From Oligoflexales bacterium (GTDB taxonomy: Bacteria; Bdellovibrionota_B; Oligoflexia; Oligoflexales; RGVZ01): a stretch of 64,000 nt of DNA. Shown piece after piece: positions 37,620 to 61,563 of the stretch; position 1 is the stretch's first letter; each line of letters starts with the position of its first letter. The notes beneath the pieces are model-generated. The model ran no database searches, was not told where the DNA came from, and was given only the letters and a program-made list of their open reading frames with translations. Made by a program: the position numbers and the translations under genes. Where the stretch lies: contig CANFEB010000001.1 in the NCBI GenBank assembly GCA_947445775.1, positions 80,484 through 144,483 of the forward strand, given 5' to 3'.

Positions 37620-38342
37620 ATGACCAAGTCCATCACAATCAATGCCTTGAAATTTGCCTATCCCAGCCACGAGGATGTAATCGACATCGACCACCTCGCC
37701 ATCTCGTCCGGAGAACGGATTTTTGTCCATGGACCATCGGGGTGCGGCAAGACGACATTGCTTGGATTGATGTCAGGAATCCTCACAGGGCCGCGCGGAA
37801 GCATTGAACTTCTCGGCCGTGATTTGCAGGGCATGACGCCAGCACAACGCGACCGTTTCCGGGGCGAACATATCGGTTATTTATTTCAAATGTTCAATCT
37901 GCTGCCCTATTTGAGTGTCATAGAAAATATTATTTTGCCCCTGAGATTGAACCGTGGGCGGCTTGGAAAAATATCTGGGTCACGGGAATCTGCCCCGAAA
38001 AATCTAGCTATAAATCTAGCTAAATCTCTGGCCGAAACTCTGGGCATCGATCACCTACTGGATCGCAACGCGACAGAGTTGAGCGTCGGCCAGCAGCAAC
38101 GAGTTGCCGCCGCACGGGCCTTGATTGGAAATCCTGAGATCCTCATTTGCGATGAACCAACTTCCGCGCTGGACTCGGTTCATCGCGACCGTTTTCTGGA
38201 CCTTTTGTTGGGCATGAACGTCACCGGAAAAACCACCGTGATTTTTGTCAGCCACGATCAAAGCCTGGCTCACAGGTTTGATCGGACCATCGATTTGTCC
38301 ACGCTCAACCGCAGATTTCGTGCATCGACCGGCGACGATTAA
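37620..38342 (+). CDS. ABC transporter ATP-binding protein (MacB/LolD-like)
   Basis: GPSGCGKTTLL, LSVGQQQRVAAARAL, ILICDEPTSALD. Confidence 0.85.
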   Translation: MTKSITINALKFAYPSHEDVIDIDHLAISSGERIFVHGPSGCGKTTLLGLMSGILTGPRGSIELLGRDLQGMTPAQRDRFRGEHIGYLFQMFNLLPYLSVIENIILPLRLNRGRLGKISGSRESAPKNLAINLAKSLAETLGIDHLLDRNATELSVGQQQRVAAARALIGNPEILICDEPTSALDSVHRDRFLDLLLGMNVTGKTTVIFVSHDQSLAHRFDRTIDLSTLNRRFRASTGDD

Positions 38343-56401: not shown

Positions 56402-57732
56402 TGCTAAAAAATTCGGCGGGCTGCACGCGCGTCGCGAGAAAATTTGCCGCACTGGGATCATCGCTTCTCATCGAAATTATTTTTCAGGCGATGGCGATGA
56501 CATTGAAAATGACGATGGCGATGGCGATGATCATCCTTGGCCGATTGCCAGCCTTTGCCACAAACTCCCTGGCGCGCCAAATCACCGGGCGCACCCACGG
56601 CGCGGACTCGATTGAGGGCTTGCCTCGCTGCCGCCCGGAGAGTCGTGGCGACCTGCTATTTTTTTGCAGTTCTGCTGGCGAGTTCGAGCAAGCCCGACCA
56701 GTCATTGACCGGCTGAGTGAAAGCCTAGGGCTGGAACCAATGATCCTTTTTTTGTCGCGCTCTGGGCTGGAATATATTCGAGCACGCGGCGAAAAAATCC
56801 GAGCCGCCCTGGCCCCCCCCGACACGCTCTGGAGGTGGCGCCGTTTTGATTCTCGCCACAAAATTTGCGCGTCCGTGGTGATCCGTCACGAATGGTGGCC
56901 GTCATTTCTGAATATTTTCGGCGGAAATCGCCCCATGCTGTTGATTGATGCTGGGCGGCCAGCCGGCTCTCCGAACTCCAAACTAAAAAATCTCGGTCGT
57001 GGATATTTGGCCAGGCAATTCACCCAGATTTGTACGGTTGACGAAGCCAGCCGGACTTTCTTTACGAAACACTTCGCAATTGACCCCGCAAAAATAATGG
57101 CCACCGGAGACACCAAATACGACCGCGTGATGGACCGCGCCGTAAAAACCGTCGTCGGCGACGACCTGCGCCGCCAGATCAGCACGTTTGCCAAAGGGCG
57201 AAAAATTCTTGTCGCCGGCAGCATCTATGCCGCCGACATCGCCTTGCTGATGAAATCCTGGCGAGACCATCCAGAACTTGCGACCTCGTGGGCCATTGTC
57301 GCCGTCCCCCATTATCCAGATCAAGCCACGGCCCAGTCCCTACTAAAACAGATTGGCGGCGCAGGCTGTGATCTCCTCATCGTCAGCCGGATGGGGGTTT
57401 TGGCAGAGCTTTATTCCCTGGCCGATGCCGCGTGGGTTGGTGGTGCCTGTCACAATAAGATTCACAACTCCCTTGAACCGGCGGCGCACGGAGTGAATTT
57501 GGGGTCTGGCATGAAATTCAGTAACAGCCCTGAGGCGGTCCAGATGCACCGGGAAGGCGTTTTGCATGCGCTAGCCGGGGCCGATTCGGTGGCCCAGTGG
57601 CTGAAAACGCTGGAGCTCCCTGCAGCGTCGCCCCCGGGTGAACGTCCCCCTGCGAGCCTGGCCTTTGTGACGGCGCGGACCGGTGCCGCGCAAAAGATCT
57701 GTGACCTACTTGAGGCGAAACTTAATGCTTGA
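56398..57732 (+). CDS. waaA: 3-deoxy-D-manno-octulosonic acid (Kdo) transferase
   Basis: LLFFCSSAGEFEQARPVI and GGACHNKIHNSLEPAAHGV. ATGA overlap with the GT9 gene. Confidence 0.6.
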   Translation: MMLKNSAGCTRVARKFAALGSSLLIEIIFQAMAMTLKMTMAMAMIILGRLPAFATNSLARQITGRTHGADSIEGLPRCRPESRGDLLFFCSSAGEFEQARPVIDRLSESLGLEPMILFLSRSGLEYIRARGEKIRAALAPPDTLWRWRRFDSRHKICASVVIRHEWWPSFLNIFGGNRPMLLIDAGRPAGSPNSKLKNLGRGYLARQFTQICTVDEASRTFFTKHFAIDPAKIMATGDTKYDRVMDRAVKTVVGDDLRRQISTFAKGRKILVAGSIYAADIALLMKSWRDHPELATSWAIVAVPHYPDQATAQSLLKQIGGAGCDLLIVSRMGVLAELYSLADAAWVGGACHNKIHNSLEPAAHGVNLGSGMKFSNSPEAVQMHREGVLHALAGADSVAQWLKTLELPAASPPGERPPASLAFVTARTGAAQKICDLLEAKLNA

Positions 57733-59260
57733 AAAACAACTGATCATCAATGCCAACGAATCCGAAACACGCATCGCGCTTTTGGAGCGCGGCGACCTGG
57801 CTGAACTATACATTGAACGCCATCACGAACGCGCCATGGTCGGCAATATCTACAAGGCCCGGATCAACCGGGTTCTGCCGGGGATTCAGGCCGCGTTCAT
57901 CGATATTGGTGCCGATAGATCCGCATTTCTCTATGCCGGCGAGGTGATCAAAGAAGACATCATTCACGCCAACGAAGCTGATTCCGAAGCTGATTCCGAG
58001 GGCGATTGGCCAGAGGAGGACATGGGAAAACCCGCCCGGGTGAATCGCGGGCCTATTGAAAAAATCTTGTCCGAGGGCCAGCAGATCCTGGTCCAAATCA
58101 GCAAGGAGCCCCTCGGCACCAAGGGGGCCCGTGCCACGATGCATGTGTCCCTGCCGGGGCGCTATCTAGTCCTCGTTCCCGGGGCTTCCAAAATCGGAAT
58201 TTCCAAGAAAATTGCTGATGACGATAAACGCCAGCAACTGAAAAACCTCGTCAAGTCGATGAAACCAAAAGGCGTCGGTGTGATTGTCCGGACTGCGGCC
58301 CAGGATGCCGATGAGCGCAGCCTGGCTAAGGACCTGCGGTTTCTAATCAGAACCTGGCAGAGGATTCAACTGAGGGCCCCACGAGAATCTGCGCCGACCC
58401 TGCTTTACCAAGATTTGGATTTAGTTCGCAAAGTGACCCGTGACCTTTATTCAGCGGATGTCAGCAAGATTGTTATCGACAACCAAGAGGGGTTTGACGA
58501 GCTCTCGAGATTTCTCAATGCGACGACTCCCGGCGCTGCAAAAAAACTGGAGCTCCACACGGCGCAGATTCCGCTCTTTGATCTTTACGGGATCGAAATG
58601 GATATTGGGCGGGCCTTGGGCCGAAAAATTGATTTGCCATCTGGCGGCCATTTGATCATCGACCAGACCGAGGCCTTGACGTCGTTTGATGTGAATACCG
58701 GAAAATTCGTTGGCCACGGCAATGCCCGCGACACCATCGTTAGGACCAACATGGAGGCCGTCCCCCAGATCGTCCGCCAGCTGCGCCTGCGCAACATTGG
58801 CGGCCTCATTGTCCTGGATTTCATCGACATGGAACGCGAAGCAGACCGGGAAAAACTTTTCCTTACACTTCAAGAAGCATTAAAGCAGGACAAAGCCCGC
58901 AGCACGGTTCTGCGCGTCAGCGAACTAGGCCTGGTTCAGATGACCAGAAAACGCACGGCCGAATCACTGGAACGCCAGTTGATGGAACCGTGTCCTTGCT
59001 GTGATGGGCGCGGCAGGATTCGCAGCACCCAAACGGAATCCTACGATTTAATCCGTGAGGTGATGCGGCTGTCGTTGCAAAGCGGCAAAAAATCCCTGCG
59101 GTTGCGGCTGCGCGACGACATCCGCGACTGGCTCCTTCATGAAGAACAGCCCCTTTTTGACCGCATCTTAAAAGACTTTGGAGTGACAGCCATTTTCGAA
59201 GACGCGCCCGTGAGCCGGGCGGATTTAAGCCAAGACGCCTACGAGGTCTTTCCCGCTTAG
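57725..59260 (+). CDS. rng: ribonuclease G (RNase E/G family)
   Basis: ATG 57725. S1 domain VGNIYKARINRVLPGIQAAFIDIG, the DFIDM motif, and a Zn-link CPCCDGRG. Confidence 0.8.
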   Translation: MLEKQLIINANESETRIALLERGDLAELYIERHHERAMVGNIYKARINRVLPGIQAAFIDIGADRSAFLYAGEVIKEDIIHANEADSEADSEGDWPEEDMGKPARVNRGPIEKILSEGQQILVQISKEPLGTKGARATMHVSLPGRYLVLVPGASKIGISKKIADDDKRQQLKNLVKSMKPKGVGVIVRTAAQDADERSLAKDLRFLIRTWQRIQLRAPRESAPTLLYQDLDLVRKVTRDLYSADVSKIVIDNQEGFDELSRFLNATTPGAAKKLELHTAQIPLFDLYGIEMDIGRALGRKIDLPSGGHLIIDQTEALTSFDVNTGKFVGHGNARDTIVRTNMEAVPQIVRQLRLRNIGGLIVLDFIDMEREADREKLFLTLQEALKQDKARSTVLRVSELGLVQMTRKRTAESLERQLMEPCPCCDGRGRIRSTQTESYDLIREVMRLSLQSGKKSLRLRLRDDIRDWLLHEEQPLFDRILKDFGVTAIFEDAPVSRADLSQDAYEVFPA

Positions 59261-59309
59261 CAGGGGCCTTCGCGTTTGCTCAGGGTGACGACAGCATTTT
59301 TCCGACAGG

Positions 59310-59326
59310 TTGGCTCATCGCAACAG
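59310..59326. repeat. 17-bp direct repeat TTGGCTCATCGCAACAG, left copy
   Basis: Identical to 60338-60354. Confidence 0.9.
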
Positions 59327-59416
59327 TGACATTTATCAGCGACTTCGTCCCCTCAACTAGTTTCTGGCGCGAAAGCGCGAGAAACTATCCCGAGCGTAGC
59401 GAGGGATCTCGATGCG

Positions 59417-60282
59417 CTACCCATAGCGTTGTTTGGTCGGCGACCAGTCCGACATAGATTCTTTCGGTCCAACCACTTCACTCGCATGCTTGCGCGCCTG
59501 TGCCATGAAACCGGTGCCGAGTTCCTGTTCGGCAGCAGCTTGATTGTGGCGACGACACCGCAAAGTCAAATTTTCCTCGCTATGTTTACCGCCGCGACAC
59601 CACATTTTAATGTGGTCTAATTCTAGCATCGAACGCTCGGGGCAGCGGCTGCCGCCGGAATGCCTCCACGTGCATTGACCGCGGTCGCGTAGCCATACTG
59701 TGTGACGAATCGCCGCTGGAATTGCTGGACGGGTTGCTGGTTTTTTGTATGGACTCTGACCGCCATTCCCTGGAGAAGCGGGCTCGGAGACTACTTCTGC
59801 GTCGGTCTCTGTCTCTACTTCGGCCATGGCCGTCTTCGCCGGAGAAGGAGAAGGAGAAGGAGAAGGAGAATTTTCGAAGCGCGCCATTGCCCTTTCCGCC
59901 TTCCTAAGTGGGTCACGTTTATCAAGCAAATCTTCGAGAGCCTTAACCAAAATTTCGGGCAGCGACGGCATGCGACCGCCACCCCTCATGTTAGCCAGGA
60001 CCTAGCGGGCTCGGTCCAACAATAGAAGTGCCACCTCTCTTTTTGATTTGTGCTTGATACCATCAAGAAGGAACTCAGAATTTGCCTGAGTGATTTTCGG
60101 CGCAATTAGAGCCAAGTGAGACACTTGAGTCTCGACAGATTCCAGCAGCTTTCGCGCCGTTCAAGTTCACCGATGAGCGACACGGATTGGCGTGGCACAC
60201 ATTTTTTAGAAAAACTTCAAACATGCATCGAGGAACGTACTAATGGCGAAGCCTGACGTTCAAAAATCGTGTCAAGCGACAT
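59417..60282 (-). pseudogene. HNH endonuclease gene (DUF222-like N-region) with an in-frame TAG, upstream frameshift(s) and a probable internal deletion
   Basis: ORF 59417-59989 carries LELDHIKMWCRGGKHSEENLTLRCRRHN. The same frame upstream reads TARKLLESVETQVSHLALIAPKITQANSEFLLDGIKHKSKREVALLLLDRAR-TAG(60002-60004)-VLANMRGGG. Further 5' pieces lie in other frames, up to the ATG at 60282. Confidence 0.65.
59841..59870. repeat. hexanucleotide repeat (GGAGAA)5
   Basis: Encodes (SP)5 in the HNH ORF. Confidence 0.9.
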
Positions 60283-60337
60283 CTCTTGGATAGGAAGAGC
60301 TTAGGGGGTACGGGACGAAGTCGCTGGTGAATTACAG

Positions 60338-60354
60338 TTGGCTCATCGCAACAG
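60338..60354. repeat. 17-bp direct repeat, right copy
   Basis: Spans the last three codons and the stop (60343-60345) of the ATPase gene. Confidence 0.9.
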
Positions 60355-61563
60355 CCCAAAAAGATGCAGTGGAATTCGTCGCCCAGAACTTGCTTCGATG
60401 CCGTCGACAGCCACCACGCGCTTTAGGTCACCCCGCACCGGGTTTGCCGCAAATTGCCGTTCGGTCTTGCCGGAGCCACCAACTTCGACAGCGATCTGGT
60501 CGTCAACGATAAAGTCGATATTACCTAGAGACTTCACCGAATGGTGGGGACGAAGGCTGGTACAAAAGAAGGTCTCGCGAACTGTGCCTATAGATGGTTC
60601 AACTCGATGGGGTGCTGTGATGGCGGCCAGCAAATTTGTATTTTCCAGATAAACTTTTTCTGGTTTGCGGGCAGATTTGATCCCAGTTCCAGCAGCGGCA
60701 ATTGTTTGTAACAAACGGCCATGTTCCAGACAGTCGAGGAAATGATAGGTCGAGGCTTTTGCAATCCCCAAATTTCTGCTCAATGCTTCGATATTCAAAT
60801 GGAATGGTACGGTGGAGGAAACGATCCAAAGTATCTTTTTGAGTGTGTTGACCTTTGCCGCGGAGATCGCGAATTGACTCGTGAGATCTTCGGAAACAAC
60901 TTTGTCTATGATGTTTTGCAAACGCTGGTGATAACCCTCGAGGCCTTGCATAAAAAACGGATAATGGCCGTACTTCAGGTAGTTCCTGAACGCGTTGAGT
61001 AGATTTCCTTTGGCCGCCAGGTCGCGCGCGATGGTCGAGTGATGGGCGATCAAATCATCTAGCGTAATAACGGCTATGTCGCCTTGGCCTGTGAGGTGCA
61101 AATATTCTCGAAATGATAATCCAGGCAAATCGTACCAGAGTACGCGTCGTGACAAATCGGCATTCCCTTTTGTCAGTGCAGACGAAGAGCTGCCGCTGAT
61201 CCAAATCGATTTTTTTGGGTATGTGTCAATTAGGCTTTTAATCTCTGCGCCCCAGTCGGTGGCACGGTGGGCCTCATCAATGATAAGGCCCTCGCCTCCA
61301 CGCTTAAAGTATTCCCGACCGATATTGTAGACCCCAAGGGCTGACACTTCGACATGATCGGCGGAAATATAGAGGCAGCGCTCGTGCGAGCCAAAAACTT
61401 CCCAGTATTTTTGCAGCAACAGGGTTGTTTTGCCGACCCCCCGGCCGCCTGTGAGGCCAATAACGCGAGCATTCCAGTCGATGTCTAGGACGTTCACTCG
61501 CGAATAGGACTTCGGAACCTCTGCGGTGACCAGATCGTGGATCTCTATGATGTTATCGAGCAT
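60343..61563 (-). CDS. AAA+ ATPase with C-terminal nuclease-like domain (AAA_14/DUF4143-type, divergent subfamily), intact
   Basis: 406 aa. Walker A GGRGVGKTTLL, Walker B LIIDEAHR, C-terminal IDFIVDDQIAVEVGGSGK. Confidence 0.75.
   Translation of the reverse strand: MLDNIIEIHDLVTAEVPKSYSRVNVLDIDWNARVIGLTGGRGVGKTTLLLQKYWEVFGSHERCLYISADHVEVSALGVYNIGREYFKRGGEGLIIDEAHRATDWGAEIKSLIDTYPKKSIWISGSSSSALTKGNADLSRRVLWYDLPGLSFREYLHLTGQGDIAVITLDDLIAHHSTIARDLAAKGNLLNAFRNYLKYGHYPFFMQGLEGYHQRLQNIIDKVVSEDLTSQFAISAAKVNTLKKILWIVSSTVPFHLNIEALSRNLGIAKASTYHFLDCLEHGRLLQTIAAAGTGIKSARKPEKVYLENTNLLAAITAPHRVEPSIGTVRETFFCTSLRPHHSVKSLGNIDFIVDDQIAVEVGGSGKTERQFAANPVRGDLKRVVAVDGIEASSGRRIPLHLFGLLR

Follow-up and report, generated by a model that had tools for sequence, protein, structure and literature searches.

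A probable IS1202-family insertion sequence with a decayed HNH endonuclease gene at the stop codon of an ATPase gene in an Oligoflexales bacterium

The closest known systems to the element analyzed here are the insertion sequences (IS) of the IS1202 long-duplication group (ISTde1, ISCARN53/62/63, ISShha1, ISVbsp4 and ISVisp7), formerly the IS1202 group of ISNCY. The IS1202 family is characterized by TGT/ACA ends, imperfect inverted repeats of 24-26 bp and an additional internal site for transposase binding. The transposases of this family have been modeled on TnsB of Tn7, and the seventh residue after their catalytic E is Q, not K/R (PMC10132070). In the ISTde1 group, direct repeats of 15-17 or 16-17 bp are produced (both ranges are given in one study), and the listed members include ISVbsp4, ISVisp7, ISShha1 (TSD 16) and ISTde1 (TSD 17). 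Some IS1202-family members carry passenger genes. The transporter IS (tIS) ISKpn21, ISKpn65, ISRel10 and ISShal2 have a single additional, unrelated ORF inside their inverted repeats; these passengers are hypothetical, with no Pfam match, and most of them are found in the 5-bp-duplication (ISAba32/ISAjo2) group. No report of an HNH endonuclease passenger in the IS1202 family was found in the literature.

We examined a 64,000-nt stretch of Oligoflexales DNA (hereinafter the window) that contains a cassette at positions 59309-60354, direct repeats included (the window copy). With a probability of roughly 0.9, this cassette is a non-autonomous, internally deleted IS1202-family transporter IS of the ISTde1-like long-duplication group, with an HNH endonuclease gene as cargo. 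It shares with that group transposase remnants that match the NF033594 profile, a 5'-TGT at the transposase-proximal end (IRL), inverted repeats of ~25 bp (21/25 positions matching) and, in sibling copies, second subterminal repeats. It differs from the published members in that its duplication, measured by identity, has 18 bp rather than 15-17 bp, the transposase-distal end (IRR) starts with TGA instead of TGT, the passenger is an HNH gene, and the window copy lacks the transposase and the inner repeats. Compared with the tIS listed above, the distinctive features are the nature of the passenger, an HNH nuclease, and the host, an Oligoflexia (Bdellovibrionota) lineage. As in MITEs and other deleted non-autonomous IS, the termini and the duplication persist without a transposase, and many differently deleted copies are present in related genomes; unlike MITEs, the element is neither miniature nor uniform, each copy having its own deletion pattern and much of the passenger gene being retained.

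The cassette is a real transposon insertion. It is flanked by two copies of GTTGGCTCATCGCAACAG, at 59309-59326 and 60337-60354, with 1,010 bp between them. A flanking duplication of 17 bp had been described previously; the repeat itself stands, but its length is 18 nt by identity, one base longer, or 17 if one base matches by chance, and the boundary could be misplaced by one position. When the 17-mer was compared with the rest of the window allowing up to three mismatches, the only additional match, at 38144, contained three mismatches. The right copy of the repeat covers the 3' end of an ATPase gene, supplying the last three codons (L-L-R) and the stop, plus 6 nt beyond. This gene, the host target (AAA_14/DUF4143 by Pfam; 60343-61563, minus strand; 406 aa), has been kept intact because the duplication regenerates its last three codons and stop. 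On the opposite side of the cassette lies the convergent RNase G gene (rng; 57683-59260, plus strand), which was identified with Pfam and from the gene map of a contig of a related strain (L033).

That contig contains the empty site. It has the same synteny as the window (FlgD, a 297-aa protein, ATPase, rng), with 97.7% nucleotide identity in both flanking genes, and its ATPase (P0087) is an orthologue of the same length that is 98% identical. The gap between rng and the ATPase gene is 24 nt, and the stop codons of the two genes have only one ACAGGTTGGCTCATCGCAACAGCCC between them. As the repeat is present only once in this empty site, the insertion of the cassette and its duplication are proven, which confirms the footprint that had been proposed on the basis of the inverted termini, the target-site duplication and the decayed HNH gene. 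The empty site was located through the 98% identical ATPase orthologue; the search with the exact ATPase sequence returned filled sites only, in contigs broken inside IRL (nine Logan contigs with an identical ATPase all end 46 nt past the ATPase stop).

Directly inside the duplication, the inverted termini previously described are present at 59327-59351 and 60312-60336, with 21 of 25 positions matching and a perfect 15-nt core. Their 25-nt consensus, with up to three mismatches allowed, occurs at these two sites only, compared with an expectation of 0.00 from shuffled sequence. The triplets at the two ends, TGTAATTC... in IRL and TGACATTT... in IRR, account for one triplet mismatch. IRR ('end B'; 59327-59359, minus strand) includes the 25-nt terminal inverted repeat at 59327-59351, and its outer 33 nt are conserved, the ends of two sibling copies (L012 and L016) being 100% identical to it over 33-35 nt. 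IRL ('end A'; 60312-60336, minus strand; TGTAATTCACCAGCGACTTCGTCCC) consists of a single repeat in the window copy. Sibling copies possess two units at each end: two tandem 27-nt units, 27 nt apart, in IRL (L008, L013, L014 and L019) and, in IRR, two units at a distance of 25 nt (L012 and L016). Both inner units have been lost from the window copy, where IRL resembles a hybrid of the outer and inner units and the inner subterminal repeat of the siblings' IRR (CTCAACTAATCAGCAATATCGTCCC) is absent. Given the loss of these inner binding repeats, mobilization of the window copy in trans is doubtful.

A leader adjoining IRL (60283-60311, minus strand) could be aligned with three sibling copies (L008, L014 and L019). 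It is followed by a deletion junction at ~60283-60286, where all of the transposase gene but the short tail described below has been lost; in the inferred ancestor, this gene would have been about 1.2 kb long. At the other end of the cassette, the 3' segment 59360-59488 contains a hairpin with 13-nt arms (TAGTTTCTGGCGC / GCGCGAGAAACTA; 59358-59387); this segment gave no match in the fetched sibling copies (blastn of 59352-59500 against the collected loci). A scan of 58500-61000 against Rfam (E up to 1) produced no matches, and hence there is no intron or ribozyme behind the ends. Promoter and terminator predictions within the cassette were as numerous as in shuffled sequence.

The search for more copies of the termini, suggested by the sequence-only reading, was productive: sibling copies that share them were found at other loci. 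In genome_contigs, one Oligoflexia MAG contains four occurrences of a 21-nt end motif, which lie at contig ends or close to them and are distributed over three contigs. Three further matches were located outside this MAG (L010, L015 and L011), and the two that were examined are due to chance (L010, a rpoB-like coding stretch, and L015). Likewise, the only two matches of the motif in metagenome_contigs are chance ones, in a rpoB-like 'IYQRLRPG' stretch and in a membrane-protein gene. The order IRL, transposase remnant, HNH gene was observed in L008 and L019 (the latter being the same site as L013). Two other loci, L021 and L009, show a transposase remnant followed by the HNH gene on short contigs that do not include IRL; in L009, the HNH gene (P0002) is intact and the adjoining transposase gene is broken. 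A flanking repeat of 15-16 bp was deduced by combining L012 and L014. No intact copy, with transposase, HNH gene and both ends, was recovered, and therefore the ancestor had to be assembled as a composite of differently deleted copies. A possible target preference was considered on the basis of a comparison of the window 18-mer with a coding site for 'RCRRHN' in an HNH gene beside the L012/L014 copy (11/18 identical positions in the opposite orientation relative to the IS, 7/16 in the same orientation); this idea was dropped because the flanks of L008, L016 and L019 share nothing.

The earlier proposal that the cassette has no transposase, so that the HNH protein might itself be the mobilizing nuclease, does not survive the comparison with these siblings, in which the HNH gene is separated from the TGT end by remnants of a DDE transposase gene. 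The window itself is not devoid of transposase sequence either: the 3' end of the gene, 14 codons plus the stop (RCRLTRFLNVRLRH*; 60240-60284, minus strand), is still present and is all that is left of it in the window, and the same 14-codon tail closes the transposase reading frame in L019. The adjacent remnant of the spacer between the transposase and HNH genes (60189-60239, minus strand) is 87-92% identical to the corresponding sequences in L008, L009, L019 and L021.

The C-terminal region of the transposase shows 53% identity over 36 aa to a full-length transposase (P0208, 385 aa), and the sibling remnants align with the same protein with 45% identity over 201 aa (E 2e-56). The full-length transposases related to the remnants are 385-403 aa long. 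The NCBIfam profile NF033594 (transpos_ISNCY_2) matches a natural transposase fragment (P0086) with E 1e-11, a 96-aa stitched fragment with E 1.5e-14 and a 181-aa composite, stitched across frameshifts and copies, with E 1.1e-38; for two close relatives of P0208, the scores exceed the profile cutoff of 250 bits (360 for P0207 and 317 for P0210). In the L009 remnant, the segment 'QDRL / VPELRLNGIT' (...SIQDRL / VPELRLNGIT), which spans a frameshift, matches ERAFDTFQDRLVPELRL of the Pseudoalteromonas transposase and would correspond to the motif that follows the catalytic E and includes the family's Q at E+7; the catalytic E is not preserved. When an intact transposase of the lineage was sought, a word-indexed search gave only fragments of 61-139 aa, and in an exhaustive search of representatives the full-length relatives were all at about 47% identity or lower.

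By tblastn, the nearest annotated relatives are genes labeled 'ISNCY family transposase', with 38-43% identity, in IS of 1.74-1.75 kb on Vibrio and Pseudoalteromonas plasmids. These IS are bounded by TGT...ACA and contain 2-3 subterminal repeats at a spacing of 27-29 nt, their ends TGTTAACACCAAGCGACTTTGTCG and TGTGATCACCAAGCGATTCTGTCG can be aligned with TGTAATTCACCAGCGACTTCGTCC, and two of them (L022 and L023) are flanked by perfect repeats of 16 and 17 nt. They have the same end architecture as the element, and their duplications are close to it in length. The element had been regarded as outside the standard IS classes; in fact, TGT ends, imperfect inverted repeats of ~25 bp, subterminal repeats and a 16-17 bp duplication constitute the published ISTde1-type signature, which we could reproduce on the annotated relatives.

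Most of the interior of the cassette is an HNH endonuclease pseudogene (59417-60188, minus strand), which was delineated using PF01844, translations, the homologues P0002 and P0003, and blastn comparison with L008 and L009. Its identification as an HNH gene holds: the window ORF 59417-59989 matches PF01844 with E 2e-5, its 25 bits exceeding the gathering score of 21.4 (21.6 bits for the intact homologue P0002), phrog_333 'HNH endonuclease' is matched with E 3e-9, and the HNH motif is located at about 59540-59647. The reported in-frame TAG at 60002-60004 is real. One internal deletion had been suspected, and comparison with intact relatives of 329-345 aa reveals three, with losses of about 84 nt at the junction at about 60019-60022, about 108 nt at about 60145-60157 and about 190 nt at about 60179-60188. 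The last of these took the RBS with it, as well as the start codon and the first ~28 codons of the gene. The linker of the protein is encoded in part by a (GGAGAA)x5 hexamer array (59841-59870), which reads SPSPSP on the minus strand.

A DUF222-type N-terminus had also been suggested. The HNH proteins resemble those of the DUF222-HNH repeat families of actinobacteria (e.g., REP13E12) in the C-terminal HNH motif, the long alpha-helical N-terminal region and the multicopy occurrence, but differ from them in that PF02720 is matched neither by the reconstructed window protein nor by five intact homologues (P0002, P0005, P0006, P0013 and P0041), even with E values up to 10 allowed, and the suggestion was abandoned. 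When a profile of 22 HNH homologues was compared with PDB sequences, the only matches were marginal ones to Cas9-HNH (E 0.1 or worse); such matches tell nothing about the N-terminal domain of these proteins. Intact HNH homologues with 52-54% identity are encoded without IS ends or a transposase in related genomes (L002, L040 and L039), with upstream synteny common to L002 and L040. Given this independent occurrence, the HNH gene is probably cargo and appears to have the status of a passenger in the IS.

Three other explanations of the cassette can be weighed against this reading. It is extremely unlikely that the cassette represents a new class of elements, bounded by inverted repeats and generating duplications, in which the HNH nuclease alone makes the staggered cuts. 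Such an interpretation is suggested by the HNH gene being the only sizeable gene between the termini of the window copy and by the 18-bp duplication, which is unusually long compared with most IS families; yet, apart from the transposase remnants upstream of the HNH gene in siblings with the same termini and the 14 codons kept in the window, relatives that encode a transposase and no HNH protein make the same 16-17 nt duplications and have alignable ends, and no such termini are found near the HNH homologues of L002, L039 and L040, which are intact. The overlap of the repeat with the 3' end of a gene that it regenerates, as is often seen with integrative elements, could alternatively indicate an att core, with the inverted repeats serving as binding arms of a tyrosine or serine recombinase and the integrase having been lost. 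The probability of this explanation is close to nil: no copy contains a recombinase remnant, the termini match IS1202-family ends, and the copies (window, L008, L019 and L016) occupy unrelated sites with different flanks, so there is no common att sequence.

A functional partnership is unlikely as well, namely one in which the HNH protein assists a TnsB-like transposase, cutting the second strand as TnsA does or nicking the target, in a two-nuclease variant of the family. The position and orientation of the HNH gene, downstream of the transposase gene, are the same in every copy with enough sequence, the HNH gene outlives the transposase gene in some copies (P0002 in L009), and the TnsB-based model of IS1202 transposases (PMC10132070) invites the comparison. 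The element indeed shares with Tn7 the TGT/ACA ends, the multiple internal transposase-binding repeats and a second nuclease gene within the element, but homologues of TnsA, TnsC, TnsD and TnsE are absent and the Tn7 duplication is 5 bp. The closest full-length relatives are single-ORF IS that produce the same duplication with no HNH gene, the published family is single-ORF except for a few unrelated passengers, and the HNH family is found intact in related Oligoflexia with neither IS ends nor a transposase. The constant gene order would be expected anyway if all copies stem from one capture event.

Under the preferred interpretation, that of an IS1202-family IS with a passenger, we infer an intact ancestor of about 2.8 kb that would have comprised, in this order, IRL, the DDE transposase gene (~390-400 aa), the HNH passenger gene (about 330 aa) and IRR. 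IRL would have started with 5'-TGT and contained two tandem ~27-nt transposase-binding repeats, and IRR would have contained two repeats as well. The transposase, either its own or one acting in trans, would have attached the IS ends at staggered cuts, 17-18 bp from each other, on either side of the AAA_14 ATPase stop codon; the stretch between the cuts would have been duplicated during repair. Deletions between short repeats could then have removed the whole transposase gene and both inner end repeats, along with the HNH start codon and two further segments of the HNH gene, and a GAG-to-TAG change would have added a stop to the latter. The window copy is now dead.

The main value of these findings is corrective: the cassette appears to be a case of textbook IS decay and not a new transposon class. 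The transposase disappears before the termini and the target duplication do, and the gene that survives between the termini need not be the mobility gene. If, instead, the HNH protein does prove to be an accessory factor, the Oligoflexia lineage would represent a two-nuclease variant of the family and not an IS with random cargo. Under the interpretation favored here, the IS1202 long-duplication group would extend to an Oligoflexia (Bdellovibrionota) lineage and gain one clean pair of filled and empty sites, and an HNH endonuclease would join the short list of IS1202-family passenger genes. The duplication of 17-18 bp lets the IS land on a stop codon without damage to the gene.

The 1-kb cassette lies between the RNase G gene (rng; 57683-59260) and a minus-strand gene for a 406-aa AAA_14/DUF4143 ATPase (60343-61563). 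Reading of positions 58800-60900 together with a repeat finder delimited a perfect direct repeat, GTTGGCTCATCGCAACAG, at 59309-59326 and 60337-60354, that is, 18 nt rather than the 17 nt of the sequence-only reading; no further close copy of the 17-mer was found across the window. As had been proposed, the right copy covers the last three ATPase codons (L-L-R) and the stop, and it extends 6 nt past the stop. Directly inside the direct repeats, inverted repeat arms (59327-59351 and 60312-60336) match at 21 of 25 positions with a perfect 15-nt core, and the 25-nt terminus consensus (three or fewer mismatches) occurs at just two sites in 64 kb, with 0.00 expected from shuffles. No Rfam family matches the cassette region.

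The corresponding empty site was found on L033, a 6-kb Logan contig that encodes an ATPase orthologue of equal length (P0087, 98% identical) in the same synteny (FlgD, a 297-aa ORF, ATPase, then convergent rng), with 97.7% DNA identity to the window in both flanking genes. Here the gap between the ATPase gene and rng is only 24 nt, and the junction reads ...TTACAGGTTGGCTCATCGCAACAGCCCAAAAAG..., with the 18-mer present once. Therefore, the insertion of a 1,010-bp segment with duplication of a 17-18 bp target overlapping the ATPase stop codon is proven, and the duplicated target restored the end of the ATPase gene. The stretch from the rng stop to the duplicated target has about 30 extra nt (GGCCTTCGCGTTTGCTCAGGGTGACGACAGCA) that are absent from the empty-site strain (window 59262-59308 compared with L033:4496-4519), an indel that has no connection with the IS. 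The ATPase hits PDC-S01, a candidate defence family of PADLOC (E 3e-24); its homologues with 71-78% identity are found in gene surroundings of quite another kind (L034, L035), so that it could be an accessory gene in its own right.

The window termini are homologous to the ends of a multicopy element. When the 21-nt motif ATTNAYCAGCGACTTCGTCCC was scanned against one genome per species, four sites were found in one metagenome-assembled genome (MAG) labelled Pseudobacteriovorax antillogorgiicola (Oligoflexia, Bdellovibrionota), all ~100-320 nt from a contig end. Nine Logan contigs with an identical ATPase all stop exactly 46 nt past the ATPase stop, inside the element end, and such a fixed break point is the expected product of a multicopy repeat. 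The architecture at the MAG contig ends is fuller than that of the window copy: end A (IRL, transposase-proximal) consists of two units 27 nt apart, TGTGATTCATCAGCGATATCGTCCCG then TCTGAATTAATCAGCGACTTCGTCCCG, followed by an RBS and ATG, and end B (IRR, transposase-distal) of TGACATTTATCAGCGACTTCGTCCC then CTCAACTAATCAGCAATATCGTCCC. The window IRL is one, apparently hybrid, unit, and only the outer 33 nt of IRR are kept. Of the three matches to the motif outside the MAG, two were examined and both are coding-sequence coincidences, one of them rpoB-like.

Two features of the MAG (CAMDHM01) concern its own copies. On contigs 10 and 15 (L012:1-160 and L014:1-180), the sequence that borders the IS ends on the outside comes from the HNH gene itself, in pieces of 26-31 nt (...NLTLRCRRHNQA codons); the L012 flank and window 59536-59561 are 100% identical over 26 nt, and both flanks share GCGGTGTCGTCGCCAC. 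It looks as if the IS had inserted in the HNH gene carried by an older copy, duplicating 15-16 bp, and deletions had later trimmed the site. The 90-aa P0084 runs from the transposase start in L013 over the contig start and continues into the 14 terminal codons at the opposite end of CAMDHM010000008.1 (74,650 nt; L013:1-240 with L016:7950-8000). This contig may be a circle, or assembly may have collapsed it at the IS.

The sequence-only reading held that no transposase is present; sibling copies, however, contain remnants of a DDE transposase between IRL and the HNH gene. HNH homologues with 67-100% identity are numerous and mostly broken, each differently. Locus L008 (P0010) shows two IRL units, a ~400-nt frameshifted ORF, the HNH gene and the end B interior; L019, which shares its insertion site with MAG contig L013, shows IRL, a longer remnant (P0080, 132 aa), a C-terminal remnant and HNH. 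L021 retains ...WCLIAMIDDATSE..., the first catalytic D region, and L009 retains ...QDRL / VPELRLNGIT, a stretch corresponding to the motif that follows the catalytic E. The fragments hit the NCBIfam model NF033594 (ISNCY family transposase): 96 stitched residues gave E 1.5e-14, a 181-aa composite, which we joined from different copies and across frameshifts, gave 1.1e-38, and P0086, a natural fragment, gave 1e-11. With P0081 as query, an exhaustive HMMER search covering 1.84 billion representatives yielded full-length relatives of 385-403 aa (44-47% identity); against NF033594, P0207 scores 360 bits and P0210 317 bits (cutoff 250). The ordered remnants can be aligned with both ends of P0208, at 45% identity over 201 aa (E 2e-56) and at 53% in the C-terminal 36 aa, and the N-termini also agree (MAAGGIFMTKNE and MCQGGLVLSKNE). 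Given that the L019 transposase frame reads ...VHVYEDGLISLYYGHIRLDHELVVLPKRRW...RCRLTRFLTFRLRH* and that the window keeps RCRLTRFLNVRLRH* at 60240-60284, a trace of the transposase gene is present in the window, with everything upstream of this tail, back to the IRL leader, deleted. None of the collections searched yielded an intact transposase of this lineage. In environmental assemblies, the lineage comprises many copies with differing deletions and frameshifts (P0004-P0076; L008, L009, L019, L021), the deletion junctions often lying at short direct repeats, e.g., AATCCGTGTC.

A tblastn search of PLSDB with the composite matched 4,826 plasmid records; among the matches listed, those with an annotation are named 'ISNCY family transposase', and Pseudoalteromonas, Vibrio and Shewanella provide the best ones (38-43% identity). 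Two plasmid elements, L022 and L023, are complete single-ORF ISs (~1,748 and ~1,736 bp; transposases of 502 and 507 aa). They are flanked by perfect repeats, 16 nt and 17 nt long, and have TGT...ACA ends with 2-3 subterminal repeats at 27-29 nt spacing. Their termini, TGTTAACACCAAGCGACTTTGTCG and TGTGATCACCAAGCGATTCTGTCG, can be aligned with the window TGTAATTCACCAGCGACTTCGTCC, and the L022 transposase scores 426 bits against NF033594. These are the features published for the IS1202 family, to which Harmer, Pong and Hall (PMC10132070) ascribe TGT/ACA ends with 24-26 bp imperfect inverted repeats, an extra internal transposase-binding site by each end, and a DDE transposase that resembles TnsB and has Q at E+7. 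The long-duplication group includes ISTde1 (17), ISCARN53/62/63 (16-17) and ISShha1, ISVbsp4 and ISVisp7 (16; about 1,737-1,742 bp; 504-507 aa) (PMC10132070); according to Siguier et al. (bioRxiv 10.1101/2022.12.17.520857), 15-17 or 16-17 bp repeats define the ISTde1 subgroup, a few members have unrelated genes as passengers, and Deltaproteobacteria are among the taxa that harbour the group. Therefore, the element belongs to a standard, recently formalised IS family, and the long duplication, which at 17-18 bp is close to the published range, is a hallmark of that family, not an exotic trait.

The HNH pseudogene on the minus strand of the cassette interior (PF01844, E 2e-5, above the gathering score) is decayed, with an in-frame TAG at 60002-60004. 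Intact relatives have 324-345 aa, and comparison with L008 and L009 maps three losses, of about 190 nt (including the RBS, ATG and first ~28 codons), about 108 nt and about 84 nt, the last being, relative to the intact P0002, an in-frame loss of roughly SRITAEGDLLPAEATFELRVTLTKSQGEL; no sibling matches its final ~130 nt, which include the region of a hairpin with 13-nt arms. The suggested N-terminal DUF222 resemblance was not borne out, as none of the members tested has a detectable DUF222 domain, and neither Pfam nor NCBIfam nor PDB sequences gave an informative match to the N-terminal two-thirds. The linker contains a perfect (GGAGAA)x5 array (59841-59870) encoding SPSPSP; sibling proteins have APAPAP or shorter versions instead, so that array length seems to vary among copies. 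Given that distant homologues (52-54% identity) are intact in L002, L040 and L039 with no IS termini or transposase nearby, the simplest reading is that the HNH gene is a passenger captured by one IS lineage, which became a transporter IS. The upstream genes are common to L002 and L040; in both (L002:2960-5007, L040:3996-6038) the HNH gene follows genes for a ~251-aa HTH_3-like protein and a DLH-type hydrolase, which may be the conserved chromosomal context of the ancestral gene.

The original observation was accurate and its interpretation as an insertion footprint is proven, but the proposed novelty, an HNH-only element outside the standard IS classes and mobilised by its own nuclease, is unsupported: it is contradicted by the transposase remnants, which occupy the correct position and order in siblings, by the fit of termini and remnants to IS1202, with a duplication close in length to those published, and by HNH homologues without IS termini. 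An integrase/att origin is contradicted on two counts: no copy shows a recombinase, and the flanks differ from copy to copy. That the HNH protein assists the transposase in a TnsA-like role is very improbable, given that HNH-free relatives generate duplications of about the same length.

The cassette is the decayed remnant of a transporter IS of the IS1202 family, with a probable HNH passenger; intact relatives share the element's architecture and make duplications of about the same length. By analogy with the family, a TnsB-like DDE transposase would have bound both the terminal repeats and the subterminal ones, and would have joined the 3' ends to target phosphates with a stagger of ~17 bp; the ancestor was probably ~2.8 kb, and deletions between short repeats would have come later. 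The window copy may have decayed after insertion or may have been already defective and mobilised in trans; given that it has neither transposase nor inner repeats and that its HNH gene is broken, it is now inert.
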